32,000 bases of DNA from Zestosphaera tikiterensis (GTDB lineage Archaea > Thermoproteota > Thermoprotei_A > Sulfolobales > NBVN01). Where the stretch lies: positions 90,001 through 122,000 of the forward strand of contig NBVN01000002.1 of the NCBI GenBank assembly GCA_003056265.1. Direction: 5' to 3'. The translations under genes were made by a program, and so were the position numbers. The notes under the pieces are model-generated. The model was given only the letters and a program-made list of their open reading frames with translations, was not told where the DNA came from and made no database searches. Below, in pieces: positions 2,368-31,816 of this stretch; position 1 is the first letter of the stretch, and the number at the start of each line of letters is the position of its first letter.

Positions 2368-2571
2368 TTAAGGCAGGCTTACGTTTTTAATCTTCTCGCT
2401 GGCCTGTTCTCCGCCTACACCCCAGTTTTCTTTAGGGACTTCATGAATTACTACTTCAACCGCTTCCTTCGGTATGCCTAATTCCATGAAAACCTTAGTT
2501 ATGCCTGATATTACTTTCTTTTTAGCTTCGTTGGAGAAACCAAGCCATACATATACGTGAACTATAGGCAT
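2368..2571 (-). CDS. 4-oxalocrotonate tautomerase family enzyme
   Basis: 67 aa beginning MPIVHV (catalytic Pro1 after Met removal). Beta-alpha-beta size and pattern are typical of the tautomerase superfamily. Confidence 0.7.
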   Translation of the reverse strand: MPIVHVYVWLGFSNEAKKKVISGITKVFMELGIPKEAVEVVIHEVPKENWGVGGEQASEKIKNVSLP

Positions 2572-2773
2572 GGCTTAACCCACCCTCTCTAATATAGTCT
2601 GAAACTTTAATTAAACCTTCATCGTTGGGTATTCATTCTTTACTTTCGGTTTAACTTACGTTAGTTTGCCTCTATTAATGAATTTATTACAACGTAATGA
2701 GGGGTCTTACGAATGTTATACTACTTTAGTAGGCCTTATCGTTTAGAAGATAGCTATATGCGATGCTTAGCAC

Positions 2774-4339
2774 TTATGAAATTACTTGTTTTTCTAGGTA
2801 TTCTCTGTAGAAGCCTTTAAGGTTCTTGTATAGTTTAGTAAAGTATTTGAATCTCTCCTCAAGGACTTTAGTAAGCTCTGGGTCGGGGTTGAATATCTTC
2901 TCCGGTTTGACGATTTTCTTAGCTATACTGAAGTCGAATGATTTAAGCCCTACTAACCCTATTATTGACGCTCCAATAGCTGACGCCTCTCTAGCGCTGG
3001 TAACACGTATAACCTTAGTGTTAAGTAGGCTAGCTAGGAACATACATAAGCTATTGTATAACGCCCCACCGCCAACTATGTTAACGTGGTCTACCTCCTT
3101 ATTGAGGAGCCTCTTATAGTATGTATACGCCCATTTAACGTTGAATGCTATACCTTCAATAACCGCCTGCGCCACGTGTTCCAACCTGTTTTCTAAGCTG
3201 ATGTTTACTATTCCGCCCCTAACGTACGGATCGTCTATTGGCGACCTCTCCCCGAACAACCACGGTAAAAATAATACTTTGTTATTCTTAGGATCTATAC
3301 TTGAAGCTAGTTCGTCTATCTTTTTATATAGGTCCTCCTTAACCTCCCCAAATATTGTTTGAAGGAACCAATCTATCGTGGCAGACCCCGTTTCCTGCTC
3401 AGCTATAAGCATATACCTACCCGGTATAGCGCTAGGTAAGCAACCCATGTAATGGTATACATCTATCTTACGCCGCGGTATATGAGCTATTATCCAGTCG
3501 CTCGTCCCCACATATATATGGATTTCATAGTCTTCAACCGCTCCCGAACCTACAGCTGTGGCGGTCATATCACCACATCCAACAACTACTTTTACGTCTT
3601 TCGAAAGACCTAATTCTTCAGCTGCCTCCTTAGCTAACGTACCAACTATATCGGTTGGTTGCTTAATTTCAGGTAGTTTGCTAGCGTCTAAGCCTACCGA
3701 TTTAATAAGGCTTTCACTCCACACCACAGCGGTTGGTGTTCTAGTGTCTGTAAGCCATGTGAGGTTAGCTTCGTCGGTGCTTATAACGGTTTTTCCAGTC
3801 ATCTTATACGTTAAGTAACCTTTCACATCGAGGAACTTCCACGTCTCTCTATAGATGTCTGGCTGTTCATTCATTAACCATACATACTTCGATAATGGAT
3901 CCTTACCGGCTTTGCCTGGAACGCCCCCGCTTATTTGAAGGAATTTTATTAATTTGAAGACGTTATAGCCTGCGATCTTTGGGAATCCCTTAAATAATTC
4001 GCGTGGGTAGCCGGCTGACCTAGTGTCAAGCCATGTAAGTATGTTAGTTAGTGGGGTTCCGTCCCTCGACAACGGAACTACCCCAGCCATTTGAGTATCC
4101 ATCACTATCCCCATTACATCCTCCGGGTTCACGCCAGCTTCATCGATAACTTTATTCGTAGCGTCTACAAGGGCCTTCCATAACTCGTCTGGTGATTGTT
4201 CAGCATGGCCTGGCTTAGGTATATAAAGGTTGAGCTTAGCAGTTGTTTTATAGCGTATGGTGCTGTTTGCCGCATCGAATAGAACGGTCTTTATGGAACT
4301 AGTGCCTACGTCATATGCGAAAATATACATCTGCGTCAC
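2774..4339 (-). CDS. FGGY-family carbohydrate kinase (xylulokinase/glycerol-kinase-like)
   Basis: N-terminal YIFAYDVGTSSIKTVLFD phosphate-1 motif, GCGDMTATAVGSG, C-terminal VGGGA. Length of 521 aa is typical of FGGY kinases. The GTG start overlaps the upstream stop by 4 nt (GTGA); alternative ATG at 4330. Confidence 0.85.
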   Translation of the reverse strand: MTQMYIFAYDVGTSSIKTVLFDAANSTIRYKTTAKLNLYIPKPGHAEQSPDELWKALVDATNKVIDEAGVNPEDVMGIVMDTQMAGVVPLSRDGTPLTNILTWLDTRSAGYPRELFKGFPKIAGYNVFKLIKFLQISGGVPGKAGKDPLSKYVWLMNEQPDIYRETWKFLDVKGYLTYKMTGKTVISTDEANLTWLTDTRTPTAVVWSESLIKSVGLDASKLPEIKQPTDIVGTLAKEAAEELGLSKDVKVVVGCGDMTATAVGSGAVEDYEIHIYVGTSDWIIAHIPRRKIDVYHYMGCLPSAIPGRYMLIAEQETGSATIDWFLQTIFGEVKEDLYKKIDELASSIDPKNNKVLFLPWLFGERSPIDDPYVRGGIVNISLENRLEHVAQAVIEGIAFNVKWAYTYYKRLLNKEVDHVNIVGGGALYNSLCMFLASLLNTKVIRVTSAREASAIGASIIGLVGLKSFDFSIAKKIVKPEKIFNPDPELTKVLEERFKYFTKLYKNLKGFYREYLEKQVIS

Positions 4340-5580
4340 TTGCTTAACTTCATGAATAACTCTTCAATGCTATAGGTCTTCCTCCCCTCAGGCCCTTCCT
4401 CAACTACTTTTATAGGTATGCCCCTCCCCATCGGCGTAGTAACGTATTTGTTAGCAAGCCTGAATAACTCCATGGGGTTAACTACGGCTTCAGGTGGGTA
4501 TACACCATACTCTTTTATCAAACCCTCCTTGATTAATAGTCCTCCTAAAGCTAGCGGTATCCCCGTACCTTCACCCATGCCGAGTCCTTTAGCAACCGTG
4601 TAGAATGTGTATTTGAATTTCACACCTTCACGCAACCCTTCAATCGTGATCATTAAGCATCCGGTGGGTTTAGTTAAACCTGCTTTCTCGAGTATCTCCT
4701 TCCTCTTCTTTAATACGTAGGCAGTCGCGAAGTCGCGTGCTTTAACAACTGTGTTATCTATTGTGACTTCTTCATCGCTAAATAACCCTGCTTTAACAAG
4801 TGTCCTTATAAGGTATGCGTACTCAGGTGGTAGGACAAGACCTAGATTAGTTACTCTTTTCTTTACGTTGATATACTTAGGTAACGTGATAGTTTCTGGG
4901 TGGGGATATAAGTATACTTTGTAAGTACCTATCTCCGGGAATTCCACGTCGTACTCAAATTCCTTGGCCAAGTCGCTATCTAGCTTAGTGTAGACTATCC
5001 TACCATCAAGGTATATAGGTATATCGATCATCATGGAATGAGCTCTATGTTGTATGACGGCAGGACCTTCATATGGTTCTCCTCCATGGGCGTGATATAT
5101 GTCGATGGCGTGAACCTCACTTAGTAGGTAGTCTGAAACCAATCTAGCAAGAATATTACTTAACCCTGGACTACTTCCCATACCGATAAGGGCTTTAACC
5201 CCGTTCTTAACCGCCTTACTAGATAATTCAAGCATTTTAACGGTTGCGTCATAGTCGTCACATACATCCACGTAATCCACTCCCGCATCTAACGCCGTTT
5301 CTAAGACTTTAACGCCGAACCTATAGAACGGCCCCACAGCGTTTAACACTATATCGGAATCCTTCATTAGCTTCATAAGGTTACTCCTATCCTCGACGTC
5401 AACGTATTCTAACGATACAGCATGAGGGTATATCTCCTTAAAGACTTCCTTTAAAACATCCACCCTCTTATCGGCGAGGACCATCTCCTTAAAGACTCCT
5501 GAATTAACTAGGAAGAAGGAACATGCTCTGCCAACCGCACCAGCGGCTCCGAGAATAAGAACACGAGACAAATTTACCAC
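4336..5580 (-). CDS. saccharopine-dehydrogenase-like NAD(P)-dependent oxidoreductase
   Basis: N-terminal Rossmann motif ILGAAGAVGRA. The 414 aa two-domain layout resembles the Sacchrp_dh_NADP / Sacchrp_dh_C family. Confidence 0.65.
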   Translation of the reverse strand: MVNLSRVLILGAAGAVGRACSFFLVNSGVFKEMVLADKRVDVLKEVFKEIYPHAVSLEYVDVEDRSNLMKLMKDSDIVLNAVGPFYRFGVKVLETALDAGVDYVDVCDDYDATVKMLELSSKAVKNGVKALIGMGSSPGLSNILARLVSDYLLSEVHAIDIYHAHGGEPYEGPAVIQHRAHSMMIDIPIYLDGRIVYTKLDSDLAKEFEYDVEFPEIGTYKVYLYPHPETITLPKYINVKKRVTNLGLVLPPEYAYLIRTLVKAGLFSDEEVTIDNTVVKARDFATAYVLKKRKEILEKAGLTKPTGCLMITIEGLREGVKFKYTFYTVAKGLGMGEGTGIPLALGGLLIKEGLIKEYGVYPPEAVVNPMELFRLANKYVTTPMGRGIPIKVVEEGPEGRKTYSIEELFMKLSK

Positions 5581-5852
5581 CGTATTATAAATAGAAATTG
5601 TTACATTTATATTTTAAACTACGTCAGCAACGCGTTGTAAAAATATGTATTTATATCGTATGTTACTTCTTAAACAACTTTAGTTAATGGATTCATTTGT
5701 TCTTACCTAGCTTCAGATTATACATGCTAGCTAATTTACTATCTATTAATGATAAGGCAGAACCTATAGTATGGTGTTATTGGAGTATATCTACAGTAAT
5801 ACGTTAGTTGTTAAGCTTAGTTCTAAGCATAGTTAATACTATACTAGCTACG

Positions 5853-6356
5853 CTAGCTACGTTGCTGAAGTTTCTCCGTTATCTCCTTAACAAGTTTATC
5901 TAGCTTATCTCTATCTTTATCTGGATCTACTACCGACAAGCAATCTACTACGTTGTATTTCATGTCTTCAAGCTCTCTCCTAAGTTTTGATGCGTAGTCC
6001 ACATTAAGATCGGCTGTTGTTACGCAATATACAGGGTTGCTGTACTTTCCAGTGTGTTTAGTTATGAATGAGTATATTGGTGGTGAAGCCGCACCCCACC
6101 ATACTGGAGTAGATATTACTAATGCGTCACAGTTTTCTAGCTTAATATCACTGTTAATTAACTCAACAGGCTTTCTCATTAGGGCTTCGTAGAGTATCCT
6201 AGGGTTTAAATGGAGGAATTTATCGAAATATTCTCTAGTAGGCTTTACTAGGAAGACGTTAACATTAATGCCTGACTCCTTAAGCCTCTCCTTAATATAC
6301 TCAACTAATTTACGTGTTTTACCTGTCTTGCTATAATATACTACGCATACATTCAC
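5853..6356 (-). CDS. flavodoxin-like fold protein
   Basis: N-terminal VVYYSKTGKTRKL FMN phosphate-binding-loop-like motif; 167 aa. Confidence 0.55.
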   Translation of the reverse strand: MNVCVVYYSKTGKTRKLVEYIKERLKESGINVNVFLVKPTREYFDKFLHLNPRILYEALMRKPVELINSDIKLENCDALVISTPVWWGAASPPIYSFITKHTGKYSNPVYCVTTADLNVDYASKLRRELEDMKYNVVDCLSVVDPDKDRDKLDKLVKEITEKLQQRS

Positions 6357-6428
6357 TAAAAGTCCCTGTTAATAAAGCATATAGCATAACTATAAATGTT
6401 TTAAAGAGGTAAAACTACATGTATTTAT

Positions 6429-7664
6429 TCATAAGCCCAACATCATCGCCAACGAGCCTTTCTTATATGCTTCGATAGCTGCCTTCAACTCTGTATTTTC
6501 CTTAGCGTATTCCTCCAGCGGTATGTTCTTTAACGTAGCCTCGATTGCTTGCCTCATGGATTTAGCCCCAGCTCTTGAACCCATTGGGTGGGCGTGAATT
6601 GCTCCTCCAGCTGATATACCCACGTCTACCCCTAAATCCTTCATTAACTGAGGTACGTGAAGCTGTGTTATCCCTCCTGAGGGGCATGGTAGTGTTGGTT
6701 TAATACCCTCCATTGGTGCTCGAAGATATTTAGCAACTCTAATATACTTCTCCTTAGTGTAGGTTGGGACCTTACCGTATGGTGCGGGGTAAATATTCAT
6801 GTCAGCTCCAGCCAGTCTAATCAGTTTTCCAAGTATGAGTGTAGAGCTTATCCCTCCGTAGGGAGATGTGTATATAGTTCCCGCGAAGTCTATGCTATGT
6901 GCTAAGATAGGTAGCTTAATGCTTGGATCCTCAGTTAGTGATTTAAAAGCTCCTAATCCAACTGATACAGCGTTAACCATTAAGGCATTAGCGCCTAGCT
7001 CCTGTGCTTTTTCAGCTAAGTCGAATAGCTTAGGTGGATCGCTTGTTATGTTGACTGTATATAGTTTCTTCTCACCTGTCTCAGCTACTGCTTTATCTAA
7101 AGCCTCCATGAACTTCACCACCCTTTCCTCTACTTTATTATAGCTTTGATTAGCTAGTAGTTCATCGTCTTTTATAATGTCTACACCGCCAACCCATGCT
7201 TCATAAGCTAGTTTCGCACCTATATCAGGTGGGTAGTATACGCAAGGCTTTATCATAGCGACTATGAAGGGCCTTTCGTGGATTCCCATAAGGTTTCTCA
7301 ACCCTTCAACGCCGTATTTAGGTCCTTTGAAGAGCTTTAGATATTCCTTAGGCATCCATATATCTAGTAGTTTTATTTTACCGTAAGCCATTATATTGCC
7401 TGTGATGGTTGAAAAGATTACTGAAATATCGGATTCGAAATTTACCCATGGAAAGCCTATAGCTATGATGAACCACCTTAACCCTTCCTTAGGCGTTTCA
7501 GTCTCGTAGTCTGGGATTTCATATACTCCTAAGACCTTCGCTCCAATGTTCCTCCGCATCTCAGGAGTCTCCATAGGAGTTCTAATCCACGTACCCGTTG
7601 TCTGCTCAGCCGCTAAAGCTCTAGCAACTACATCAGGCTCGAAGCCTGAAGATATGCCAATCAT
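6429..7664 (-). CDS. RuBisCO-like protein (form IV RLP), not a bona fide carboxylase
   Basis: RuBisCO large-chain signatures are present: AAEQTTGTW, GNIMAYG, IKP, GGVDIIKDDE (carbamylated Lys and metal ligands), PSGG, AGGAIHAHPMG. Positions equivalent to K177 (IKPC), R295 (AHS) and H327 (GADMNIY) are substituted. Confidence 0.8.
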   Translation of the reverse strand: MIGISSGFEPDVVARALAAEQTTGTWIRTPMETPEMRRNIGAKVLGVYEIPDYETETPKEGLRWFIIAIGFPWVNFESDISVIFSTITGNIMAYGKIKLLDIWMPKEYLKLFKGPKYGVEGLRNLMGIHERPFIVAMIKPCVYYPPDIGAKLAYEAWVGGVDIIKDDELLANQSYNKVEERVVKFMEALDKAVAETGEKKLYTVNITSDPPKLFDLAEKAQELGANALMVNAVSVGLGAFKSLTEDPSIKLPILAHSIDFAGTIYTSPYGGISSTLILGKLIRLAGADMNIYPAPYGKVPTYTKEKYIRVAKYLRAPMEGIKPTLPCPSGGITQLHVPQLMKDLGVDVGISAGGAIHAHPMGSRAGAKSMRQAIEATLKNIPLEEYAKENTELKAAIEAYKKGSLAMMLGL

Positions 7665-7689
7665 GTATAAAGCTATAACGTACTTGTCT

Positions 7690-7915
7690 AGATCTATCGA
7701 TTCGAAGAGTAAGTCCAGAAGATCAAAATAATCAACCTTATATGGAGACGTATTTTCACCTCACATGATTGTTTAGAACAAAGGTTTATAAAACTAACGC
7801 TATGCTGAGGTTTTATAAAAGTAAAAGAACCACAATAGCTTAGATCTATAGATGTAGAGTGCTTTTGCAACTGAAAGCCCCGCCTCTTTAGGGCGGGGAG
7901 GAGGTCAGATCTATA
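7690..7915. repeat. three copies of the 8-mer AGATCTAT (7690-7697, 7842-7849, 7907-7914); the outer two are 9-mers AGATCTATA flanking a 7-bp GC hairpin (CCCCGCC 7878-7884 / GGCGGGG 7892-7898)
   Basis: Read directly from the sequence. The palindromic AGATCT core reads as (T)ATAGATCT on the minus strand, upstream of the RLP cluster start at 7664. Confidence 0.6.
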
Positions 7916-8371
7916 CAACATATATAAACACTCTGATACTTCACTAGCAAATAAATGATAGTTTATTGTGCCTTCAATAATGCAGAATAAACTAACTGTA
8001 AGCAAAGCGGTTTTAACTTTATATTTTTATAATTGGCAACGCCTTAATCACATATAAGAACTCACTTTCATGTTTGCAGAATAAATAAACTTTAACTTAC
8101 ATTCTAGTAAAGCTAAACCAATGCTATAAAGAAGCGCATACTTTACTAGGCTAAACTAATTTAATTGAATCTTATTACTAGTTCTGTAGGGGAAGTTCTT
8201 AAACTTAAACTAGGATAGGGATTACTTTAGTCTTGTTTTTGATGAATCCGCGTGCTCTATCAGCCTCCTTAACTTTAGCTGTTTTTATAACGTATTTCAT
8301 AATTCAATAAATATTTTCTAAATGTTTTTAATTCTGTAATTTGAGAGACGCTTTTGTTTTATTGCGTAATG

Positions 8372-9115
8372 CTAGCTTATGAATTCGTAGATATAGTCCT
8401 CAAGTTTCTGGAACTCTGGCGATCTTCTATTCCTAGGTCTTGGGAGGTTAACTTCAACTACCTTCCGTACTTCCGCAGGTCTTGGAGTTAGTATCGCGAT
8501 TCGATCAGCCATGAAGAGTGCCTCATCTATTGAATGCGTGACCATGACTACGGCTTCAACTCCTGCGACGCCGCTGAGCCATATATCCAGGAGCTCCGCC
8601 CTTAAGGCTTCTGCGGTTAATGGATCGAGATTTGAGAATGGTTCGTCGAGGAGAAGTATTTGAGGTTTTATTGCTAACGCTCTCGTGATATTCACTCTTT
8701 GTTTCATCCCTCCAGAAAGTTGATGAGGGTAGGCGTTTTCAAAGCCGCTTAAGCCAACTAACGAGAGATACTTTCGTGCTTCATCCCTAGCTTCCTTAGG
8801 TTTTATTCCAGCGCTTTCTAATGGTAGGGCTACGTTCTCAAGTATTGTAAGCCAGGGAATCAACGTCGGGAATTGAAACACGAACCCTATCCTAGGCCTT
8901 TCAGAACTTATGTGGAATTCTATAGTGCCCTTCGTAGGCTTCTCCACCCCCGCAAGTATTCTGAGGAGGGTTGATTTACCGCATCCACTCGGCCCTAGAA
9001 TAGCTAGAAACTCACGTCGAATCTCTAGGTTAATCTTATTAAGCACTTTAATCCTAACCCTGCCGGAGAGGTATTCCTTCTCCAACTCCTTAATGCTTAC
9101 TACGACTTCAGTCAT
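8372..9115 (-). CDS. ABC transporter ATP-binding protein, NitT/TauT (nitrate/sulfonate/bicarbonate) type
   Basis: Walker A GPSGCGKSTLL, signature LSGGMKQRV, Walker B LLLDEPFSNLD, H-loop VTHS. Confidence 0.9.
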   Translation of the reverse strand: MTEVVVSIKELEKEYLSGRVRIKVLNKINLEIRREFLAILGPSGCGKSTLLRILAGVEKPTKGTIEFHISSERPRIGFVFQFPTLIPWLTILENVALPLESAGIKPKEARDEARKYLSLVGLSGFENAYPHQLSGGMKQRVNITRALAIKPQILLLDEPFSNLDPLTAEALRAELLDIWLSGVAGVEAVVMVTHSIDEALFMADRIAILTPRPAEVRKVVEVNLPRPRNRRSPEFQKLEDYIYEFIS

Positions 9116-10686
9116 TCCACCACCCTATACTTCATGAATGCTTGGGTGAAGAGCCACCTCCAGAAAGTTCTATTCACGATAACTATGAAGATAGCTAGGT
9201 AGAGAGCGTAAAATAATGTGGCGTTGATATCGCCACCTATGGTAGCTACGTTAAGTAGGTAGCCTATACCGAAAAATTCAATTGTTTTAGATCCTATTTG
9301 AGCGTATTCAGCTGCGATGACGCTGTTCCAAGCACCTCCCCAAGCGGCTGAAAGCCCTGCGGTAATTCTAGGCATCATCGACGGGAGGTATATTCTAGAA
9401 AACCTTTTAAACACTCCTAACCTGTATATCTGAGCCACCTCATAGAGTCTCCGTTCAGCTTCTGTAGGTGGTGCTAAAGGCGTGTTGAAAAATATATACC
9501 AGGCGGTCCCCTGAAACAGTATCAGGAATGAAACTAATAGCGGGCTTATGAGGCCGTTTTCAACCGCTAGTGAGAATATCGACCACCAAAGGAATGCTGG
9601 CATAGATGAGAGGACTTCACCAAGCTGGATAAGGATATACTTCGCTACCTTACCATGTTCGAAGGCATAGAAACCGGCAAACGCTATGAAAGCAAATGAA
9701 GCTAAAATCGTAGTGAAGACCCTAAATAAACTATGCAGAAGCCCTACCGTTGCGTTAAACCACGGAAGCCCCGCTAGATCAACTTTTAAAGTGTTAACGT
9801 TTTTAAAAACTACGAGGCAAGCGATCGTTAAGGTCGTAAGAACTGCTGCGATAGCAAGGACTCTCGACGTTGAAGCTTTAAATAATTTCCGTAGATTTAT
9901 GCGGCTCAACACTACATCTAGGTTTCGAGTTGAGAGTAGGTAAATCACGTAATTACTGGGTGAAGGCATCCTGCCGAAGATATGTGGTGATAGAGCTCTG
10001 AAGATGTTTACCGCCGGATAAGAAACTGCGGATCCCCCAGCTAACGCAGACACCGCATTAACTAAGGGGTTCCACAACAGCATATATAGAGCTAACGACA
10101 CCCCAGTTAGGAGGGCTACCCCTACGTATGCGCCGAGGAAATCACCTCCAGCAGTTAAGTTCACAATATCCGCTCCGATACCTCTTAACCTGAATTCCTC
10201 GCTTCCTAACGAAATAACTTCACAAGCTGTTAAGAAGAAAAGACCGCCTGCCCAGGAGACTATACTGTTGGAAGCTATTGACAGCAGCGCTGTAGGTATG
10301 TAGATCTTAAACAATCTTGCCGCTAAGTTAAACCTATATATTGCTGACATCATCAGAAAGTCTTCAGGAACTGCTTTTACGGCTGAGTAGACGCCTAGGA
10401 TTAGATTCCACGCTTGCCCGGTAAATATGAGGATAACGGAGGCGAGCTCCGCCCCCAGCGGTGGTTGAACAGCCTTCGTTACGAGCAGTAGGACAGCAGG
10501 GAAAAAACCTAAAACAGGTATTGACTGGAGGACGTCTATTAAAGGGTAGAGAGTAGCTTCTAAGAGTTTAGACCTTCCCATAGGAATCCCTATTAGAAGT
10601 GCTGCTACGATAGACATCGTATATGCTGTTAATAGCCTCAGTAAGCTATAGGTCAGGTCCGTCAGTAGGTAGCCATAATCCATCAA
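9112..10686 (-). CDS. ABC transporter permease, fused duplicated transmembrane domain
   Basis: 524 aa polytopic protein, about twice the usual permease size. 4-nt overlap with the downstream ATPase gene. Confidence 0.75.
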   Translation of the reverse strand: MMDYGYLLTDLTYSLLRLLTAYTMSIVAALLIGIPMGRSKLLEATLYPLIDVLQSIPVLGFFPAVLLLVTKAVQPPLGAELASVILIFTGQAWNLILGVYSAVKAVPEDFLMMSAIYRFNLAARLFKIYIPTALLSIASNSIVSWAGGLFFLTACEVISLGSEEFRLRGIGADIVNLTAGGDFLGAYVGVALLTGVSLALYMLLWNPLVNAVSALAGGSAVSYPAVNIFRALSPHIFGRMPSPSNYVIYLLSTRNLDVVLSRINLRKLFKASTSRVLAIAAVLTTLTIACLVVFKNVNTLKVDLAGLPWFNATVGLLHSLFRVFTTILASFAFIAFAGFYAFEHGKVAKYILIQLGEVLSSMPAFLWWSIFSLAVENGLISPLLVSFLILFQGTAWYIFFNTPLAPPTEAERRLYEVAQIYRLGVFKRFSRIYLPSMMPRITAGLSAAWGGAWNSVIAAEYAQIGSKTIEFFGIGYLLNVATIGGDINATLFYALYLAIFIVIVNRTFWRWLFTQAFMKYRVVE

Positions 10687-10755
10687 CTACTACCGATAAA
10701 CATTAATAGAAAGTTTAAAAGGCTCTAAATACATAAACCTATCGGTTGCTCTGGA

Positions 10756-11268
10756 GTGGATGGAGAGAACCAGCCGCAAAATAGGAAAGTCCTCGACGTT
10801 GCCCCCGTATGTTTAACACCAGATCACATACTCGGCCTTATTGAAAGCGTGTACAGCGTTGGAGGTAAGATCGACTCTGAAGAGCTGAATAACCTTATAG
10901 ACGTGGATATGGATCTATTAACACACGCTATTGACGTGGCTGAAGCTCTTGGACTCGTAGTCTTCGATAGAGGTGATATTACAGTCACAGAACTTGGTGC
11001 GAAGGTCGCGGTAGCTCCCCCAAAGGAAGCGAGGAAAATCGTTAGAGACAAGCTTGCTGCGTTAGAGCCTTTTACAACGTTAATTAATGAGGTAAAGATG
11101 CGTGGAGGTAGGATGTCTGTATCAATGGTTAGGAAGGTGTTAGCAGGTTTTTACGGTGAGGAAAACGTTGATTCAGCCTTAAACTGTTTAAGGCAGTGGT
11201 GGAGGTATTTCGAGCTGTTCTCGAGGCGTGGAGGGTATATTGAGCTTTCTAAGTCGTCACAGACGTAG
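10756..11268 (+). CDS. stand-alone AAA-associated C-terminal domain protein (domain normally fused to NitT/TauT ABC ATPases)
   Basis: The pattern LTPDHILGLIE...GKIDSEEL...AIDVAEALGLV...GDITVTELG...WWRYFELF matches my recollection of Pfam AAA_assoc_C. GTG start. Divergent from the ABC operon. Confidence 0.5.
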   Translation: MDGENQPQNRKVLDVAPVCLTPDHILGLIESVYSVGGKIDSEELNNLIDVDMDLLTHAIDVAEALGLVVFDRGDITVTELGAKVAVAPPKEARKIVRDKLAALEPFTTLINEVKMRGGRMSVSMVRKVLAGFYGEENVDSALNCLRQWWRYFELFSRRGGYIELSKSSQT

Positions 11269-11976
11269 GGACTTACATTTAATGAAGCTTAGGTATAAGC
11301 TTAAAGCCCTTCTCTCCACCTTCCTCAGTAGTTTAGCGTAGGCTGTCTTAGATATTTGAAGCTCTTTAGACAGCGTGTTAAGGTCTACCTTCCTTGGGTG
11401 GTTGTAGTAACCTCTTTCAAGCGCTAGTGAAGCCGCTTTAAACTGCCTTTCAGTTACCTTAAGGACTTTCTTCAAGTCCTCGCTTGCTGTATATAGGGTT
11501 GTTACGCCTCCCCGCATCAAATGCTCAAACTCTTCATAGCTTAATGAAGTCTCTACCTGCGCTTCATTACCTCCCTTTGATAAAGCCTCTAACACCCTAC
11601 TCTTCCCTGTCTTCGATACGACGAACCATTTTTCAATGCCGTCATATGCTATGAATGGGAAGTAGTACACGGTAACATCCTCTAAAGTTTTCATGGCGTT
11701 CGTAACCTCACGAGTTACTAACAACCCTAAAACCTCACGATCCTTTCTTCCGAGGACTTGAAACATTGAGACGTTAGGGTAGTTTGAAAGCTTATTAACG
11801 AATTTATGCGTGGCTAGCGTACTATCTGATGAAATCTTAATTAAAGCCTCCACATGGTTATTCTTTATTTTCGAGTTGATCACAAATACCTTAACATGAT
11901 CTCCTAAGAACTTCTCCGAAGTATTAACTACCGGGCAGTCAGGTTGCCAGACTTTAAGTATGTATGCTTTCATCAA
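11257..11976 (-). CDS. HTH_10 (bacterio-opsin-activator-like) transcriptional regulator
   Basis: C-terminal LTERQFKAASLALERGYYNHPRKVDLNTLSKELQISKTAYAKLLRKVERRAL is typical of the HTH_10 domain. Confidence 0.65.
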   Translation of the reverse strand: MMKAYILKVWQPDCPVVNTSEKFLGDHVKVFVINSKIKNNHVEALIKISSDSTLATHKFVNKLSNYPNVSMFQVLGRKDREVLGLLVTREVTNAMKTLEDVTVYYFPFIAYDGIEKWFVVSKTGKSRVLEALSKGGNEAQVETSLSYEEFEHLMRGGVTTLYTASEDLKKVLKVTERQFKAASLALERGYYNHPRKVDLNTLSKELQISKTAYAKLLRKVERRALSLYLSFIKCKSLRL

Positions 11977-12075
11977 TACCCACGGTAGATAGTTGTCCTC
12001 ACGTTTATAAATATGGGTTTACATGTAAACCACTATGTTTTTCCTACTTGACGAGGTCATTACTTGTGGGTTGTT

Positions 12076-13737
12076 ATGAGGAGTGACGTAACTAAGGTAG
12101 GTCTGGAGAGAGCTCCGCATAGATCTCTCTATAAAGCTTTAGGAATTACCGATGAGGAGTTGGGGAAGCCTTTCATAGCTATTGCGAACTCATTTAATGA
12201 AATCATACCTGGCCATGTACACCTGCGGGAAATCGCTGAATACGTTAAAGCCGGTGTGAGGATGGCTGGAGGTGTGCCGATTGAGTTCGGCATTATTGGT
12301 GTATGTGATGGCATCGCAATGGGTCACGAAGGGATGAAGTACTCACTACCTTCCAGGGAGCTCATAGCTGACTCTATAGAGTTGATGGTTAAAGCACATG
12401 CGTTTGACGGCTTAGTAGTTGTTGCTTCATGCGATAAGATAATCCCAGGGGCTTTAATGGCTATAGGGAGGTTGAACATACCGTCGATATTTGTTTCGGG
12501 AGGGCCTATGCTTGCTGGAACATACCGAGGTAGGAAGGTTGCCTTAAGCGATGTTTTCGAGGCTGTAGGGGCTGTGAAGTCTGGTAGGCTATCGCTTGAC
12601 GAGTTAAGTAGGCTGGAGAATCTTGCCTGCCCGAGTTGCGGGTCGTGCGCTGGTATGTACACCGCCAACACGATGAACTGCTTAAGCGAGGCTTTAGGTC
12701 TTTCCCTACCTGGGAATGGAACCGCCCCAGCACCTCTTGCCGAAAGACGTAGGATAGCTAAGTATACTGGTATGAAAATCGTTGAGCTTGTTAAGAAGGA
12801 CGTAAGGCCTAGAGACATAGCTACGAGGGAAGCTTTCCTAGACGCCATAGCCGTTGACTTAGCTCTCGGCGGGTCAACAAATACTGTGTTACATTTGCCG
12901 GCGATAGCGAGGGAGTTTAACGTTAAGATAACGTTAGATGATTTCGATGAGTTAAGCGAGAAAACACCTACGCTTGCTAAGTTAAGCCCCGCAGGCCCTT
13001 ACCACATTGAGGATCTTCATGAGGCTGGAGGCGTTTTAGCCGTTATGAAGGAACTGGATAAAAAGTCCTTAATACATAAGGATAGGATGACGGTCTCGCT
13101 GAAGACTGTTGCTGAGTTGTTAAGGGGTGTTGAGGTTTTACGTCGCGACGTCATCAAACCTGTTGAGGATCCATGGAGGTTAACTGGCGGTATAAGTATA
13201 TTGAAGGGCTCCCTCGCTCCTGAGGGGGCGGTTATTAAGGTGTCGGCGGTGGCGGAGGGGTTGACTGAGTTTGAAGGGTATGCGAAGGTATTTGATTCTG
13301 AGGAGGAGGCTGTGGAAGCCATTATGGCTGGTAAGGTAGGGCGTGGTGATGTAGTCGTAATAAGGTATGAAGGCCCTAAAGGAGGGCCTGGAATGAGGGA
13401 GATGTTAACACCTACGTCGTTAATTAGCGGTATGGGTTTGGATAGGGATGTAGCGTTGGTCACTGATGGGAGGTTTTCCGGCGCTACGAGAGGTATATGC
13501 GTTGGTCATGTGTCGCCTGAAGCTGCTGAGGGAGGGCCTATAGCCGTGGTTAAAGATGGTGATCCAATCAGAATAGACTTGAAAAAGAAGAGTATAGACC
13601 TGCTGCTTTCAAGTGATGAAATTAAGGAGAGGCTCTCGAGGTGGAGGCCTCCGGAGCCGAAGGTTAGGGAAGGATACCTCATTAGGTATTCGAAGCTTAC
13701 ATCTTCAGCTAGTACTGGAGCTGTGTTCAGGTGGTGA
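12076..13737 (+). CDS. ilvD: dihydroxy-acid dehydratase
   Basis: [19 protein letters not shown]-terminus, [21 protein letters not shown] Fe-S cluster ligand region, [13 protein letters not shown]. The ORF track begins at a TTG (12064); ATG at 12076 is preferred. Confidence 0.93.
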
Positions 13738-25845: not shown

Positions 25846-25922
25846 ACTCCGGTTGATCCTGCCGGACCCGACCGCTATCGGGGTGAGGCTAAGCCATGGG
25901 AGTCGAACGCCTCGAACACCGA

Positions 25923-25956
<34 letters not shown>

Positions 25957-26122
25957 CTACCCTCGGGACGGGGACAGTCCCGGGAAACTGGGGCTAATAC
26001 CCGATAGGTGAGGGCGCCTGGAAGGGTCCCTCACCGAAAGGGCTTCACGGGGATGTCCGTGAAGCCGCCCGAGGATGGGGCCACGGCCTATCAGGTAGTT
26101 GGCGGGGTAACGGCCCGCCAAG

Positions 26123-26161
<39 letters not shown>

Positions 26162-26168
26162 ATGGGCC

Positions 26169-26213
<45 letters not shown>

Positions 26214-26311
26214 CTCCGCAATGCGGGAAACCGTGACGGGGTCACCCCGAGTGCCCCGAAGAGGGGCTTTTCCCCGCTGTAAATAGGCGGGGGAATAAGC
26301 GGGGGGCAAGT

Positions 26312-26348
<37 letters not shown>

Positions 26349-26400
26349 ACCAGGCCTCACCCATTAACCTATTTAAACATGGGTTGAGGTCCGGCGCGGA
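26349..26400 (+). other. 16S mini-intron 1 (about 52 nt, no ORF)
   Basis: It interrupts the conserved CCCGCGAG|TGGTCGGGACGGTTATTGGGCCTAAAGCG. The intron ends form a helix (CCAGGCCTCACCC / GGGTTGAGGTCCGG). The 5' exon CCGCG pairs with the intron 3' end CGCGG, as expected for a bulge-helix-bulge substrate. Confidence 0.7.
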
Positions 26401-26538
26401 TGGTCGGGACGGTTATTGGGCCTAAAGCGCCCGTAGCCGGCCCGGTAAGTCCTCCCTTAAAACTCGGGGCTCAACCCCGAGCCGGGGAGGATACTGCCGG
26501 GCTAGGGGGCGGGAGAGGCCGAGGGTACTCCCGGGGTA

Positions 26539-27210
26539 ATGGAGGAATCTTGGGCAGGACCGCTTTATAGGGGGAAGTTTCTATTTACAATATTTACAAT
26601 AGGGAGTTATGATGTGTGAAGCATACTTAGCTGGATTAATAGCTGCTGATGGACACATTAATCCTAAGGATTACTCGATAACAATATATACGGGTGATCT
26701 TGGGAGAGCACAGACTATAAAGAATATGCTGGAAAAGCTAACCTGCAATAAAGTTAGTATCAGAAACCATAATGGAGCATATGAAGTCACTGTAACAGAT
26801 AAGAAGCTTACATTAAAGTTTTCCACTAAATACATGATCCCTATTGGTAGGAAGTCTGAACAAATAATATTACCAACAACCAATATTAATAAGAGGGAAT
26901 TATTAGAATTCATAGCTGGATACTTTGATGGTGACGGCTCAATATACAGACGTATACATAGGGCAAGGGATGGTAGAATCAGAGTTTACTACGAGGTAAA
27001 AGTTAAGAGTAAGAGCTTATACTTCCTTAATCAATTGAGAAACCTACTTGCCTCATACAACATAGTTTCTCGTGTGAAAGTATATAAAAACATGATTCCG
27101 TACCTTGTTGTTTCACGTAAAGGCGATGTTATACGGTTCTTTAGAATTTTTAAACCAAGATTTAAAAACCTTTAAAACCCCTAAACCCTGCCTGGGATCC
27201 TCCACCCCAA
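26539..27210 (+). mobile_element. 16S intron 2 (about 672 nt) carrying a LAGLIDADG ORF
   Basis: It interrupts CCGGGGTA|GGGGCGAAATCCGATAATCCCGGGAGGACCACCAGTGGCGAAGGCG. The interior is AT-rich. The terminal helix is GGAGGAATCTTGGGCAGG / CCTGCCTGGGATCCTCC. Confidence 0.85.
26609..27175 (+). CDS. LAGLIDADG homing endonuclease, double-motif
   Basis: Motifs YLAGLIAADGHI and FIAGYFDGDGSI about 100 aa apart; 188 aa. Located wholly inside the intron. Confidence 0.85.
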   Translation: MMCEAYLAGLIAADGHINPKDYSITIYTGDLGRAQTIKNMLEKLTCNKVSIRNHNGAYEVTVTDKKLTLKFSTKYMIPIGRKSEQIILPTTNINKRELLEFIAGYFDGDGSIYRRIHRARDGRIRVYYEVKVKSKSLYFLNQLRNLLASYNIVSRVKVYKNMIPYLVVSRKGDVIRFFRIFKPRFKNL

Positions 27211-27295
27211 GGGGCGAAATCCGATAATCCCGGGAGGACCACCAGTGGCGAAGGCGCTCGGCTGGAACGCCCCCGACGGTGAGGGGCGAAAGCCG

Positions 27296-27329
<34 letters not shown>

Positions 27330-27430
27330 CGGCTGTAAACGATGCGGGCTAGCTGTTGGACGGGCTTAGAGCCCGTCCAGTGGCGCAGGGAAGCCGTTAA
27401 GCCCGCCGCCTGGGGAGTACGGCCGCAAGG

Positions 27431-27474
<44 letters not shown>

Positions 27475-27589
27475 GCCTGCGGCTCAATTGGAGTCAACGC
27501 CAGGAATCTTACCGGGGGCGACAGCAGGATGATGGCCAGGCTAACGACCTTGCCGGACACGCTGAGAGGAGGTGCATGGCCGTCGCCAG

Positions 27590-27631
27590 ACACGCCTATG
27601 GCAAGATCAAGGATGCCATGGCGTGGGCGAA
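27590..27631 (+). other. 16S mini-intron 3 (about 42 nt)
   Basis: It interrupts GCATGGCCGTCGCCAG|CTCGTGTTGTGAAATGT. Internal hairpin ACGCC(T)ATGGCA / TGCCATGGCGT. The 5' exon TCGCC pairs with the intron 3' end GGCGA. Confidence 0.75.
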
Positions 27632-27776
27632 CTCGTGTTGTGAAATGTCTGGTTAAGTCCAGCAACGAGCGAGACCCCCACCCCTAGTTGCTACCCGGCT
27701 CTTTTGGGTCGGGGCACACTAGGGGGACTGCCGCCGTTAAAGGCGGAGGAAGGAGGGGGCCACGGCAGGTCAGCAT

Positions 27777-27808
27777 AAGGGTCTGGCTTTAAGGCCGACC
27801 CTGCTGAA
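27777..27808 (+). other. 16S mini-intron 4 (about 32 nt)
   Basis: It interrupts GGCAGGTCAGCAT|GCCCCGAAACCCCCGGGCTGCACGCGGGCTACAATGG. The 5' exon CAGCA pairs with the intron 3' end TGCTG. Internal stem GGGTC/GACCC. Confidence 0.7.
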
Positions 27809-27965
27809 GCCCCGAAACCCCCGGGCTGCACGCGGGCTACAATGGCGGGGACAGCGGGATCCGACCCCGAAAGGGGGAGGTAATCCCTCAAACCCCGCCG
27901 TAGTTGGGATCGAGGACTGTAACTCGTCCTCGTGAACGAGGAATCCCTAGTAACCGCGCGTCAAC

Positions 27966-28016
<51 letters not shown>

Positions 28017-28083
28017 TCCGAGTGAAGAGGGGGTGAGGCCCACTCTGCCGGGGTTTCCCGGTAGGGTGGGTCGAACCTCCTCT

Positions 28084-28289
<206 letters not shown>

Positions 28290-28679
28290 GAGGCGTCGGC
28301 GCGAAGCCGTCTGGTGGATGGCTCGGCTCGGGCGCCGATGAAGGGCGCGGCAAGCGGCGATATGCCCGGGGTAGGCGCAAGCAGCCGTCGAACCCGGGAT
28401 TCCCGAATGGGACTTCCTGCTGAGGGTTAACAGCCCTCAGCGCCCCCATTCGGGGGCGGGAACCCCCCGAACGGAAACATCTTAGTAGGGGGAGGAAAAG
28501 AAATCAAATTGAGATCCCCTGAGTAGGGGCGACCGAAAGGGGGACAGCCCAAACCAAATCCCCACGGGATAACCGTGGGGAGATGTGGGGTTATCGGCTC
28601 CACGGCTGGGGCTCGACCCCAGCGAGCCGACCCACCGTAGCCGAAGTGGGCTGGAATGCCCCACCGTAGAGGGTGACAG

Positions 28680-28718
28680 TCTGGGGGCAGGCGTTGATTG
28701 CTCTGCCCTCAGGTCAAC
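28680..28718 (+). other. 23S mini-intron a (about 39 nt)
   Basis: It interrupts GAGGGTGACAG|TCCCGTAGGCTAAAC. Internal hairpin CTGGGGGCAG / CTGCCCTCAG. A lineage-specific expansion cannot be fully excluded. Confidence 0.55.
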
Positions 28719-29571: not shown

Positions 29572-29599
29572 GCAGGGCCTAAAACCCTGCCGGGGAGGG
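29572..29599 (+). other. 23S mini-intron b (about 28 nt) in the GTPase-associated-centre region
   Basis: It interrupts GCAGCCATCCTCTAAAG|AGTGCGTAA. Perfect 7-bp hairpin GGCAGGG/CCCTGCC. Exon CCTCT can pair with the intron 3' end GGAGG. Confidence 0.55.
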
Positions 29600-29608
29600 A
29601 GTGCGTAA

Positions 29609-31750: not shown

Positions 31751-31771
31751 CCAAATGCCTTGCCGGGTAAG

Positions 31772-31816
31772 GCAGGCACCACGTATTGCATAATATGTGG
31801 TGTCTGCCCTCGACAG
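31772..31816 (+). other. 23S mini-intron e (about 45 nt)
   Basis: It interrupts ATGCCTTGCCGGGTAAG|TTCCGGCGCGCATGAATGG. Internal hairpin GCAGGCACCAC / GTGGTGTCTGC with an AT-rich loop. Confidence 0.75.

Follow-up and report, generated by a model that had tools for sequence, protein, structure and literature searches.

On balance, we consider it somewhat probable that the window (the whole 32,000-nucleotide stretch of Zestosphaera tikiterensis DNA analyzed here) carries one copy of a widespread three-enzyme module, comprising a kinase, a C-N enzyme, and a RuBisCO-like protein (RLP), for a pathway in which an amine and a carbonyl are interconverted. The trio of RLP, sugar kinase, and C-N oxidoreductase recurs in many anaerobic archaea and bacteria. 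The module points to a metabolic route that is widespread and of which no description was found in the published literature searched, in agreement with an earlier sequence-only reading of this DNA, which did not recognize the gene combination as a described pathway and whose interpretation is partly supported overall.

Gene arrangement of the locus

The observation itself holds: all five open reading frames (ORFs) are present and lie on the minus strand, and Pfam and NCBIfam models bear out the family assignment of every one (Table 1). The earlier gene list and shared orientation were confirmed, as were the 4-nt overlap between the FGGY kinase ORF and the stop codon of the saccharopine-dehydrogenase-like (SDH-like) gene, and the spacing of about 200 nt to the 4-oxalocrotonate tautomerase (4-OT) gene, which begins 202 nt downstream of the kinase and encodes Pro1 directly after the initiator Met. 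Although the genes do share a strand, the co-directional cluster suggests, when read by eye, two or three transcription units rather than one operon. Upstream of the 4-OT gene lie a separate AT-rich, TATA-like region and a GAGGGTGGG motif.

Table 1. Features of the RLP locus, with positions in the window
Feature	Position	Strand	Basis or detail
RLP, probable full coding region, 440 codons	6429..7751	-	Mechanical ATG ORF 6429..7664, 411 aa; Pfam RuBisCO_large 172 bits, RuBisCO_large_N 36 bits
Flavodoxin-like/FMN_red protein, 167 aa	5853..6356	-	Pfam Flavodoxin_5 37.7 bits, FMN_red 32.6 bits
Saccharopine-dehydrogenase-family NAD(P) oxidoreductase (SDH-like), 414 aa	4336..5580	-	Pfam Sacchrp_dh_NADP, Sacchrp_dh_C
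FGGY-family carbohydrate kinase, 521 aa	2774..4339	-	Pfam FGGY_N 148 bits, FGGY_C 91 bits
4-OT-family protein, 67 aa, Pro1	2368..2571	-	Pfam Tautomerase 55.5 bits; TIGR00013 62.7 bits (cut-off 56.9, exceeded)
Putative RLP expression signals	7756..7793	-	TATA-like TTTTATAAA 7793..7785; GAGGTGA 7762..7756

The 411-aa RLP described earlier exists as an ORF from ATG, but the full protein probably comprises 440 aa. Relatives of the RLP (maximum identity 92%, to the nearest relative) are about 440 aa long. The window still contains 29 additional N-terminal codons (7665..7751), which are conserved and share the reading frame, and an AlphaFold model (pLDDT 88.8) places Met30 midway along the first beta strand; the mechanical ORF rule has therefore probably truncated the protein, making the 411-aa ORF an artefact. 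In the window, ACG stands at the ancestral start position (7751..7749), compared with ATG at loci L086 and L001 and TTG at L011. This position is preceded by a conserved GAGGTGA ribosome-binding motif, which, together with a TATA-like element, retains its sequence and spacing at L086, L011, and L001, and we take both as putative expression signals.

Because its start codon is ACG, the RLP copy in the window may be poorly expressed or inactive. At the extreme, the gene would be decaying or silent, having lost its start codon, and the local cluster would be the remnant of a pathway that no longer functions. Replacement of the ancestral ATG/TTG by ACG, an in-frame TGA four codons upstream of the start position, and a next canonical start that would cut into the first beta strand are all consistent with decay. 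We nonetheless hold this to be very unlikely. Beyond the start codon, the remaining 439 codons are intact at 92% identity to the closest relative, both the promoter-like and the ribosome-binding motif have been conserved, and the single T→C difference might just as well reflect an error in sequencing or a weak start that is tolerated.

A distinct RLP clade

Members of the RLP clade share at least 46% identity (median 56%), compared with 33%–43% to G. kaustophilus MtnW, and by this measure the window's protein is part of a clade distinct from MtnW. No NCBIfam RLP or RuBisCO model reaches its cut-off with the window's RLP. All motifs quoted in the sequence-only reading were found in the protein; in an alignment to annotated form I RuBisCO, GGVDIIKDDE corresponds to K201/D203/E204, IKPC to K175/K177, AHS to H294/R295, and GADMNIY to H325/H327.

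Across 75 clade members, the P1 phosphate site and the metal/carbamate site are retained, with K175, K201/D203/E204, H294, and G380/G381/G403 conserved in 75/75 and E60, N123, and K334 each in 74/75. At the distal (P2) phosphate site, the residues have been exchanged: K177 is Cys in 72 of the 75, H327 is Val or Ile in all, R295 is Met or Ser, and a clade-wide invariant Asp (D288) has been gained, so that the site now presents Ile, Cys, Met/Ser, and Val/Ile plus the Asp. In the AlphaFold model, the altered residues and D288 map to the C termini of barrel strands 1, 5, and 6. From its position in the sequence, we propose that D288 may bind ammonium. Replacement of the P2 site and gain of the invariant Asp argue that the RLP is, judging from its sequence, a form IV RuBisCO-like protein, unable to bind the usual RuBisCO substrate and neither a RuBP carboxylase nor MtnW; the earlier assignment to form IV, made on the exchanges at K177, R295, and H327, agrees with the active-site alignment.

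Archaeal form III RuBisCO (T. kodakarensis 3a12, P. horikoshii 2cwx) has the same fold (TM 0.87) and the same N-terminal extension, and the RLP retains its residues E60, T65, W66, N123, K175, K201, D203, E204, H294, K334, S379, G381, G403, and G404. However, P2-site and catalytic residues are changed (T173I, K177C, R295M/S, H298A, and H327V/I), the form III model TIGR03326 gives the RLP 281 bits, short of its cut-off of 497, and AMP phosphorylase and R15P isomerase genes are absent beside the RLP in the window.

The closest characterized sequence (35%–36% identity, 256 bits) is MtnW/YkrW, the 2,3-diketo-5-methylthiopentyl-1-phosphate enolase of Bacillus and Geobacillus (PDB 2oek, 2zvi), which is also the closest characterized relative by predicted fold (TM 0.84–0.85). 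MtnW and the clade have in common the carbamate/Mg site, K175, H294, an IH.HP motif, the loss of R295, H327, and K177, and a non-polar distal pocket. Nonetheless, E60, K334, and G380 are lost in MtnW and kept in the clade, only the clade has an invariant Cys at K177 and an invariant Asp after H294, and the two differ in gene partners.

Automatic annotation and metagenome papers usually assume salvage of SAM by-products (5-methylthioribose/5-deoxyribose), and type IV RuBisCO has been assigned by default to methionine salvage in one such paper (PMC7495880). The FGGY kinase would then supply a methylthio- or deoxy-pentulose 1-phosphate to an RLP that works like MtnW or the R. rubrum isomerase. 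MtnW is indeed the top family and structure match, the distal pocket of the clade is hydrophobic like that of MtnW, many clade members are named MtnW enolase by JGI, and some loci carry families of the Bacillus pathway (class II aldolase/MtnB-like, HAD/MtnX-like, aminotransferase). We consider such a variant unlikely, however, as the RLP scores below both MtnW equivalog cut-offs (342 vs 409 and 296 vs 514), in 74 of 75 clade members Asn takes the place of the MtnW catalytic base K98, and mtnK, mtnA, mtnD, and mtnX are all absent from the window, in line with the earlier remark that no methionine-salvage genes lie nearby. Moreover, the hosts are mostly strict anaerobes, in which the dioxygenase step is not possible, and the amine-handling partner would be left without an explained role. 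The R. rubrum 5-methylthioribulose-1-phosphate 1,3-isomerase (an IV-DeepYkr RLP), compared here by description only, enolises and isomerises a ketose 1-phosphate whose far end is non-phosphorylated, a reaction type like the one proposed below (PMC6302742). In the pathway described for this isomerase, the partner is a cupin methylsulfurylase (PMC6302742) rather than an FGGY kinase, an SDH-like enzyme, or an aminotransferase.

Conservation of the gene neighborhood

We surveyed 80 related loci, counting a partner when it lay within 7 kb of the RLP gene. The RLP/FGGY/SDH-like neighborhood is strongly conserved, spanning at least 10 archaeal and at least 5 bacterial lineages, which bears out the earlier grouping of these three genes; because it recurs across phyla, the arrangement is far beyond chance. 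An FGGY kinase gene was within 7 kb of the RLP at 53 of the 80 loci and directly beside it at 32, co-directionally at 30 of these (median gap 12.5 nt). FGGY and SDH-like genes were adjacent at 18 loci, co-directional in 18/18 and separated by a median of 6 nt. In public gene calls carrying precomputed Pfam hits, the association was confirmed independently at L085, L088, and L090, with the order SDH-RLP-FGGY at L085 and SDH-FGGY-RLP at L088, on an Actinomycetota contig. Against a module, about one third of RLP loci had no partner within 7 kb (some of these being short contigs, and others, such as the Promethearchaeota group and the Theionarchaea locus L084, apparently lacking partners near the RLP), Archaeoglobus has SDH-RLP with no FGGY gene nearby, and Thermofilaceae have SDH-FGGY with no RLP within 6–9 kb.

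The SDH-like gene was present at 29 of the 80 loci and a class-III aminotransferase gene at 19, yet never together (0/80). FGGY accompanied the SDH-like gene at 28 loci and the aminotransferase at 18, and all three co-occurred at none (Fisher p = 7e-9, uncorrected for phylogeny). At least seven switches between the two enzymes are required on the RLP tree, and both occupy one operon slot (L003 vs L004, L029 vs L056). Being exclusive, placed in the same slot, and repeatedly swapped, the two suggest an amine↔carbonyl step, which we judge more likely than alcohol oxidation. The earlier logic of a kinase plus a dehydrogenase thus stands insofar as both are conserved with the RLP, although the "dehydrogenase" step is more likely amine↔carbonyl.

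The best solved relatives of the SDH-like protein are all C-N bond enzymes, namely carboxyspermidine dehydrogenase, saccharopine dehydrogenases, and the L-lysine dehydrogenase PH1688. With the family profile, the match to carboxyspermidine dehydrogenase 8deb extends along the full length (115 bits; 57 bits with the single sequence), and the N-terminal domain aligns with PH1688. Lysine 6-dehydrogenase and lysine epsilon-aminotransferase are a known isofunctional pair, one from the SDH-like family and the other from the class-III aminotransferases, and carboxy(nor)spermidine dehydrogenase/L-lysine 6-dehydrogenase families and class-III aminotransferases (lysine epsilon-, diaminobutyrate) provide alternative aldehyde-amine routes. 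Carboxy(nor)spermidine dehydrogenase and L-lysine 6-dehydrogenase have low identity to the SDH-like enzyme, and, to our knowledge, none of these saccharopine-dehydrogenase-family and aminotransferase comparators acts with a sugar kinase or an RLP. For the FGGY kinase, xylulokinase and gluconokinase models scored highest (top NCBIfam model XylB, 264 bits, under its cut-off of 380), and its best solved relative is deposited as a gluconate kinase.

Proposed pathway and alternatives

From these patterns, we infer a step order, a direction, a substrate class, and an RLP reaction. The FGGY kinase would place a phosphate on a terminal hydroxyl of a small, sugar-like molecule, and the SDH-like enzyme, or elsewhere the class-III (omega-type) aminotransferase, would interconvert amine and carbonyl on the same carbon skeleton. 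The RLP would enolise the resulting keto-sugar monophosphate via its carbamylated Lys, Mg2+, K175, H294, and K334, and then isomerise or epimerise it, or, less likely, (de)carboxylate it, to give a central-metabolism intermediate. Retention of P1 and replacement of P2 suggest that its substrate would bear a single phosphate and a neutral or cationic far end, possibly ammonium. Physiologically, the module would most likely let anaerobic heterotrophs break down or salvage an amino-sugar, amino-polyol, or amino-aldonate; transporter genes (MFS, Opp-type ABC) at several RLP loci favor uptake and catabolism.

Alternatively, the SDH-like enzyme may simply oxidize sugars or polyols as an ordinary dehydrogenase, in which case the aminotransferase loci would have a different entry substrate. 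In a nitrogen-free catabolism of this kind, a plain NAD(P)-dependent enzyme would yield a ketose for phosphorylation by the FGGY kinase, and the RLP would epimerise (at C3) or isomerise the pentulose phosphate, supplying a step missing from organisms without a full pentose-phosphate pathway; aminotransferase loci would arrive at the same keto-sugar from an amino sugar. The xylulokinase and gluconokinase scores of the kinase fit, as do Bathyarchaeia loci with an MFS transporter and a class II aldolase-family gene (best match L-ribulose-5-P 4-epimerase), and a GH51 alpha-L-arabinofuranosidase gene adjoining one Thermofilaceae SDH-FGGY pair. C3 epimerisation is, moreover, possible as a side reaction of RuBisCO's own enolisation step. 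We regard this scheme as possible but doubtful, given the C-N chemistry of every structurally solved close relative of the SDH-like family, the repeated in-slot aminotransferase replacement, most simply read as equivalent chemistry, and the pattern of P1 kept and P2 lost, which suits a phosphate beside the carbonyl better than a pentulose 5-phosphate.

The RLP might instead (de)carboxylate a phosphorylated keto-acid sugar, such as the product of deaminating a 2-amino-aldonate, or carboxylate a ketose monophosphate, in the manner of apiose-pathway RLPs. E60, N123, and K334, which hold CO2 and the carboxylated intermediate in RuBisCO, are retained in the clade and all lost in MtnW, the gluconate kinase relative of FGGY would fit an acid sugar, and the alpha-carbon of amino acids is a common site for SDH-family enzymes and aminotransferases. 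The 3-oxo-isoapionate-4-phosphate decarboxylase OiaX, also of the RuBisCO large-subunit superfamily, follows a common logic in which a kinase and a carbonyl-forming enzyme feed an RLP. However, identity to OiaX is only 27%–28%, its model NF042437 gives 173 bits where 700 are required, its neighbor is a four-carbon acid-sugar (DUF1537) kinase rather than FGGY, and its active site keeps R295 and has N123 replaced by Gly, unlike the clade. As H327 and K177, used in the hydration and cleavage steps of RuBisCO, are also replaced in the clade, and an acid-sugar substrate is without direct evidence, we give (de)carboxylation little probability.

Accessory genes

The two remaining genes, both included in the earlier cluster, differ from the three-enzyme module in their distribution. 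The 4-OT tautomerase does not hold as a cluster member: a homologue beside the RLP was found at 0/80 related loci, and the gene is probably unrelated to the module despite its adjacency. The flavodoxin-like gene is kept beside the RLP only in the closest relatives, L011 (59% identical) and L086, and is a lineage-specific accessory. Flavoproteins unrelated to the window's flavodoxin-like protein recur at other RLP loci.

Organisation of the RLP gene cluster

The sequence-only reading had described a RuBisCO-like protein (RLP) gene in a co-directional cluster with flavodoxin-like, saccharopine-dehydrogenase-like (SDH-like), FGGY kinase and 4-oxalocrotonate tautomerase (4-OT) family genes. All five genes were found on the minus strand, within 2368..7751, with every family call upheld by Pfam and NCBIfam; the 4-nt overlap and the Pro1 tautomerase some 200 nt downstream also held, and the one element that needed correction was the 411-aa length of the RLP. 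The kinase carries FGGY_N (148 bits) and FGGY_C (91 bits) domains, which agrees with the earlier remark that it is of the FGGY and not the DUF1537 type. It scores 264 bits against the XylB equivalog TIGR01312 (cut-off 380) and lower still against other FGGY equivalogs. The SDH-like protein matches PF03435 (63 bits) and PF16653 (34 bits), the NADP-binding and C-terminal domains, and the tautomerase (N-terminus MPIVH...) belongs to the 4-OT family by TIGR00013 (62.7 versus 56.9) and PF01361 (55.5 bits).

Features of the window and their coordinates
Feature	Position	Strand	Remarks
RLP	6429..7664	-	mechanical ORF; Pfam + NCBIfam
RLP start region (ACG, ribosome-binding motif, in-frame TGA)	7749..7763	-	
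Flavodoxin-like / FMN_red protein	5853..6356	-	Pfam + NCBIfam
SDH-like protein (saccharopine-dehydrogenase family)	4336..5580	-	Pfam + NCBIfam
FGGY kinase	2774..4339	-	start overlaps SDH-like stop by 4 nt; Pfam + NCBIfam
4-OT family tautomerase	2368..2571	-	67 aa; Pro1; 202 nt past FGGY; Pfam + NCBIfam
ABC ATPase and fused double permease (both minus strand); AAA_assoc_C protein; HTH_10 regulator; IlvD/EDD-family dehydratase	8372..11976 and 12064..13737		upstream of RLP
HgcC-like match	7807..7920	+	sub-threshold
Hairpin CCCCGCC-N7-GGCGGGG in HgcC-like element	~7873..7895		
Archaeal rRNA operon	25846..32000		
LAGLIDADG homing endonuclease ORFs inside rRNA genes	26609..27175, 29656..30300, 31208..31750	+	

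The 411-aa RLP call is probably a truncation artefact, because homologues of approximately 440 aa (up to 92% identical) are 29 residues longer at the N-terminus, the 29 codons for these residues are conserved and can be read in frame in the window, and both a GAGGTGA ribosome-binding motif (intact in the window) and a TATA-like element are conserved 5' of the gene. In the AlphaFold model (pLDDT 88.8, pTM 0.90), Met30 likewise lies midway along the first beta strand (residues 24-34). The conserved start position reads ACG in the window, versus ATG in two relatives (L086 and L001) and TTG in a third (L011), with an in-frame TGA four codons upstream of the ACG. This ACG could serve as a weak or non-canonical start, or it could stem from a sequencing error or from a recent inactivating change.

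Intergenic gaps measure 72 nt (RLP to flavodoxin-like), 272 nt (flavodoxin-like to SDH-like), -4 nt (SDH-like to FGGY) and 202 nt (FGGY to 4-OT), and AT-rich, TATA-like elements were read by eye 5' of the RLP, SDH-like and 4-OT genes. This arrangement suggests two or three transcription units across the five genes, with clear coupling predicted for the SDH-FGGY pair only. No tie between the module and the window genes upstream of the RLP could be demonstrated.

A search for riboswitches or leader RNAs found none in the cluster, the sole match being a sub-threshold HgcC-like element that lies upstream of the RLP promoter region in divergent orientation (28.5 bits, gathering score 50; local E = 7e-5). 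The match extends over the whole model of this archaeal RNA family, its 3' half is near-identical to the consensus, and its fold z-score is -2.3. Alignment of its hairpin to L086, the closest relative, is poor, with a 7-nt loop gap and several stem-arm mismatches.

A distinct RLP clade with a remodelled active site

The RLP belongs to the RuBisCO large-subunit superfamily (PF00016, 172 bits; PF02788, 36 bits) and falls below the cut-off of every more specific model, namely MtnW NF007095 (the top-scoring family model; 342 bits versus 409), MtnW TIGR03332 (296 versus 513.6), form III RuBisCO TIGR03326 (281 versus 497) and OiaX NF042437 (173 versus 700). Its nearest solved relative is Geobacillus kaustophilus MtnW (256 bits). 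Fold comparison was set aside as a classifier, since the AlphaFold model did not separate form III RuBisCO, MtnW and Photo-type RLPs, all of which gave TM scores of 0.83-0.87. A tree of 75 clade members, with MtnW as the root, places the group around the window protein on its own long branch; identities are at least 46% within the clade (median 56%) versus 33-43% to MtnW. A member from Archaeoglobus is included, which makes it plausible that the clade corresponds to the old single-sequence 'IV-Aful' lineage.

Active-site positions were aligned with annotated form I RuBisCO, MtnW and OiaX, and residues were counted over the 75 members (RuBisCO numbering). The clade keeps E60, T65, W66, N123, K175, K201, D203, E204, H294, S379, K334, G380, G381 and G403, and the KDDE motif comprising the carbamylated lysine and metal ligands (K201, D203, E204) is invariant (75/75). 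The residue set of bona fide RuBisCO (forms I-III) is incomplete, with K177, R295, H298 and H327 all replaced: K177 is Cys in 72/75 members, R295 is Met in most and Ser in the window's subgroup, H298 is Ala, Thr or Ser (Ala in the window), and H327 is Val or Ile in 75/75 (Ile in the window, Val in most). T173 is replaced by Ile, and a new invariant Asp (D288) directly follows the H294 position. The non-canonical K177, R295 and H327 positions named in the sequence-only reading were thus recovered by alignment (Cys, Ser and Ile in the window), and its assignment to form IV rather than to a carboxylase stands, given these replacements and the score below the form III cut-off.

Differences from MtnW are equally marked. 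Both aligned MtnW sequences carry Lys at the N123 position (K98 in the G. kaustophilus enzyme, which we take to be its catalytic base), whereas the window protein and 74/75 of the clade have Asn; MtnW has also lost E60 and K334, both of which the clade keeps. Judged by these residues, the window RLP is neither a RuBP carboxylase nor MtnW, and the enolisation machinery and proximal phosphate site appear intact in the clade while the distal phosphate site appears to be gone. We would expect the clade to act on a keto compound that bears a single phosphate and whose opposite end is neutral or positively charged, a positive charge being suggested by the invariant D288. Because E60, N123 and K334 are retained, (de)carboxylation by the RLP stays a minority possibility.

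Conservation of the neighborhood across archaea and bacteria

Conservation of the RLP-kinase-dehydrogenase neighborhood in archaeal genomes had been proposed as a check on the initial interpretation. Scanning one genome per species gave 560 RLP relatives, and ORFs within 7 kb of the RLP were called and clustered for the best 80 of these 560 loci. The archaea among them span Desulfurococcales/Thermoprotei, Bathyarchaeia, Thor-, Jord-, Hel-, Odin- and Baldrarchaeota, Hadarchaeales, Thermoplasmata and Archaeoglobus, and the bacteria span Chloroflexota, Bacillota and Caldisericota, with Actinomycetota added via a separate look-up. The neighborhood proved conserved in archaea, and in bacteria too: an FGGY kinase was found in 53/80 loci, an SDH-like gene in 29/80 and a class-III aminotransferase (PF00202) in 19/80. 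FGGY and RLP genes are directly adjacent in 32/80 loci (30/32 co-directional, median gap 12.5 nt), and FGGY and SDH-like genes in 18/80 (18/18 co-directional, median gap 6 nt).

Public gene calls with precomputed Pfam assignments gave the order SDH-RLP-FGGY in one further locus (L085) and RLP-flavodoxin-SDH, as in the window, in the closest relative (L086). A second view, started from SDH-like homologues, recovered SDH-FGGY-RLP on an Actinomycetota contig and class II aldolase-MFS-SDH-FGGY-RLP on a Bathyarchaeia-like contig. In the cultured isolate Archaeoglobus neptunius (L089, GCA_016757965.1), SDH-like and RLP genes lie 5 nt apart, and no FGGY gene was found within 6 kb of the pair. Three Thermofilaceae contigs (L087, L091, L092) carry a tight SDH-FGGY pair with no RLP within 6-9 kb. 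The tightest pair is SDH-FGGY, to which the RLP is added in most lineages. One Thermofilaceae pair adjoins a GH51 alpha-L-arabinofuranosidase gene; another is preceded by a nitroreductase gene and has an AMP/thymidine-phosphorylase-like gene nearby. These neighbors may hint at the carbon skeleton of the substrate.

Interchange of the SDH-like enzyme and an aminotransferase

The 53 FGGY-containing loci comprise 28 with an SDH-like gene, 18 with a class-III aminotransferase, 7 with neither and 0 with both (Fisher p = 7e-9, uncorrected for phylogeny). SDH-type and aminotransferase-type loci are interleaved on the RLP tree, requiring at least seven switches, and the two genes occupy the same operon slot, either before FGGY-RLP (aminotransferase in L003, SDH in L004) or after it (aminotransferase in L029, SDH in L056). 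The SDH-like family profile gives full-length matches to carboxyspermidine dehydrogenase 8deb (115 bits), to 4ina and to proteins deposited as saccharopine dehydrogenases, and its N-terminal domain matches Pyrococcus horikoshii PH1688, which we take to be an L-lysine 6-dehydrogenase. Every characterised member of the saccharopine dehydrogenase family known to us reduces imines or oxidises amines, and lysine 6-dehydrogenase and lysine epsilon-aminotransferase are a textbook isofunctional pair drawn from this family and the class-III aminotransferases.

The simplest reading is that one amine-carbonyl enzyme has repeatedly been swapped for another by non-orthologous replacement, and the mutually exclusive alternation with an aminotransferase lends indirect support to the predicted C-N bond catalysis by the SDH-like protein. 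A less favoured reading has the two enzymes yield a common keto intermediate from different starting compounds. The sequence-only reading, in which kinase and dehydrogenase supply a phosphorylated substrate to the RLP, was right at its core and needed trimming of the 4-OT and flavodoxin-like genes and redirection to amine chemistry.

In the mechanism that we consider most likely, an amine-bearing, small sugar-like compound would be imported, the SDH-like enzyme with NAD(P)+ or else the aminotransferase would turn its amine into a carbonyl, and the FGGY kinase would phosphorylate a terminal hydroxyl. The RLP would then enolise the keto-phosphate at its carbamate-Mg2+ site and reprotonate it, giving an isomer or epimer usable by central metabolism. 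The order and direction of steps and the substrate are our inference.

Accessory genes

The 4-OT gene is treated as unrelated to the module and rejected as a pathway member, because no homologue occurs in any of the 80 related loci. Inclusion of the flavodoxin-like gene in the cluster fared somewhat better: the gene is kept beside the RLP in L011 and L086, but only there. Flavoproteins of four unrelated families (FMN_red/flavodoxin-like, nitroreductase, old yellow enzyme and PNPOx-like) nonetheless recur in 17/80 loci and again in L088 and L091 (loci L004, L009, L019-L023, L031, L041-L056, L065, L079, L088, L091 and the window), mostly in SDH-type loci (14/28 versus 2/18 of aminotransferase type). 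As a lead only, their role might be NAD(P)H re-oxidation or the reduction of a reactive intermediate. HAD phosphatases occur in 5/80 loci and Opp-type ABC genes in 2/80, and Bathyarchaeia loci carry a class II aldolase-family gene with an MFS transporter. A shared transporter was dropped as a substrate clue because the L011 ABC system is of the polar-amino-acid type with SBP_bac_3, unlike the window ABC genes, and is separated from its cluster by unrelated genes.

In Thorarchaeota loci (L019-L054, L079), genes for formate-THF ligase, FolD and formiminotransferase-cyclodeaminase always precede the RLP, with a GHMP kinase further upstream and an unannotated 331-aa protein after the RLP. The folate genes and GHMP kinase were set aside as module members, this synteny being probably a lineage-specific gene order. 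A small conserved protein of ~120 aa is encoded immediately after the RLP in L002, L035, L043, L044 and L084 (hosts being Thermoplasmata, Theionarchaea and a Desulfurococcales MAG) and several genes downstream of it in L040 (Anaerolineales). It had no confident family, matching PF25653 (HMG-CoA_red_N) and, weakly, PF19906 (CGDB).

Relation to known RLP systems

Hamamelose oxygenase is among the characterised RLP systems, and we know of no such system in which the RLP has an FGGY kinase, an SDH-family enzyme or a class-III aminotransferase as its partner. Characterised systems also include the MtnW enolase, the Rhodospirillum rubrum isomerase (IV-DeepYkr type, with a cupin methylsulfurylase as partner) and the apiose/tetronate acid-sugar pathways (PMC6302742; NCBIfam names). 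A full-text search of literature open without subscription returned no pairing of an RLP with any of these three partners, in agreement with the earlier impression that the combination is not a described pathway. Methionine-salvage genes (mtnK, A, B, X and D) were absent among the window ORFs scanned, as previously noted, whereas Bacillus velezensis mtnW sits between an aminotransferase gene and mtnX. Likewise, a four-carbon acid-sugar (DUF1537) kinase follows OiaX in Rhizobium johnstonii, in contrast to the FGGY neighbor here. What appears to be new is the set of partners, RLP-centred sugar-phosphate pathways being of a kind already known.

To our knowledge, most RLP clades have no known function, and each solved clade has given new chemistry (methionine salvage, the isoprenoid shunt and apiose catabolism). 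The present clade is large, the best 80 of its 560 relatives alone spanning many archaeal and bacterial phyla, and its members are routinely annotated, wrongly, as the methionine-salvage enolase, an error that probably runs systematically through metabolic reconstructions of these organisms, which are abundant in sediments and hot springs. Metagenome papers equate type IV RuBisCO with methionine salvage (PMC7495880). The conserved partners constitute a concrete, testable three-enzyme system, and the cultured A. neptunius, with its SDH-RLP pair, might serve as a host for experiments.

The clade also bears on RuBisCO evolution because its RuBisCO active site is almost intact. A bolder proposal, which we consider unlikely, is that it is the RLP lineage nearest to true RuBisCO in its active site, with the distal phosphate site alone remodelled, and that it acts on an amino- or keto-sugar with a single phosphate, by (de)carboxylation-type chemistry or by a new enolisation, in a previously unknown pathway widespread in anaerobes in which a saccharopine-dehydrogenase-type amine dehydrogenase and an omega-transaminase are interchangeable. 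If true, sediments and hot springs would host a new route for the carbon and nitrogen of amino-sugars or amino-polyols, and the clade would be an informative intermediate for the evolution of RuBP specificity.

Expanded rRNA genes

At the distal end of the window, the 16S gene of the archaeal rRNA operon measures 2301 nt, against 1478 nt for its model, with a similar expansion of the 23S gene. By their sequence, with LAGLIDADG ORFs inside them, the expanded genes are read as containing rRNA introns with homing endonuclease genes, which are typical of Thermoproteota.
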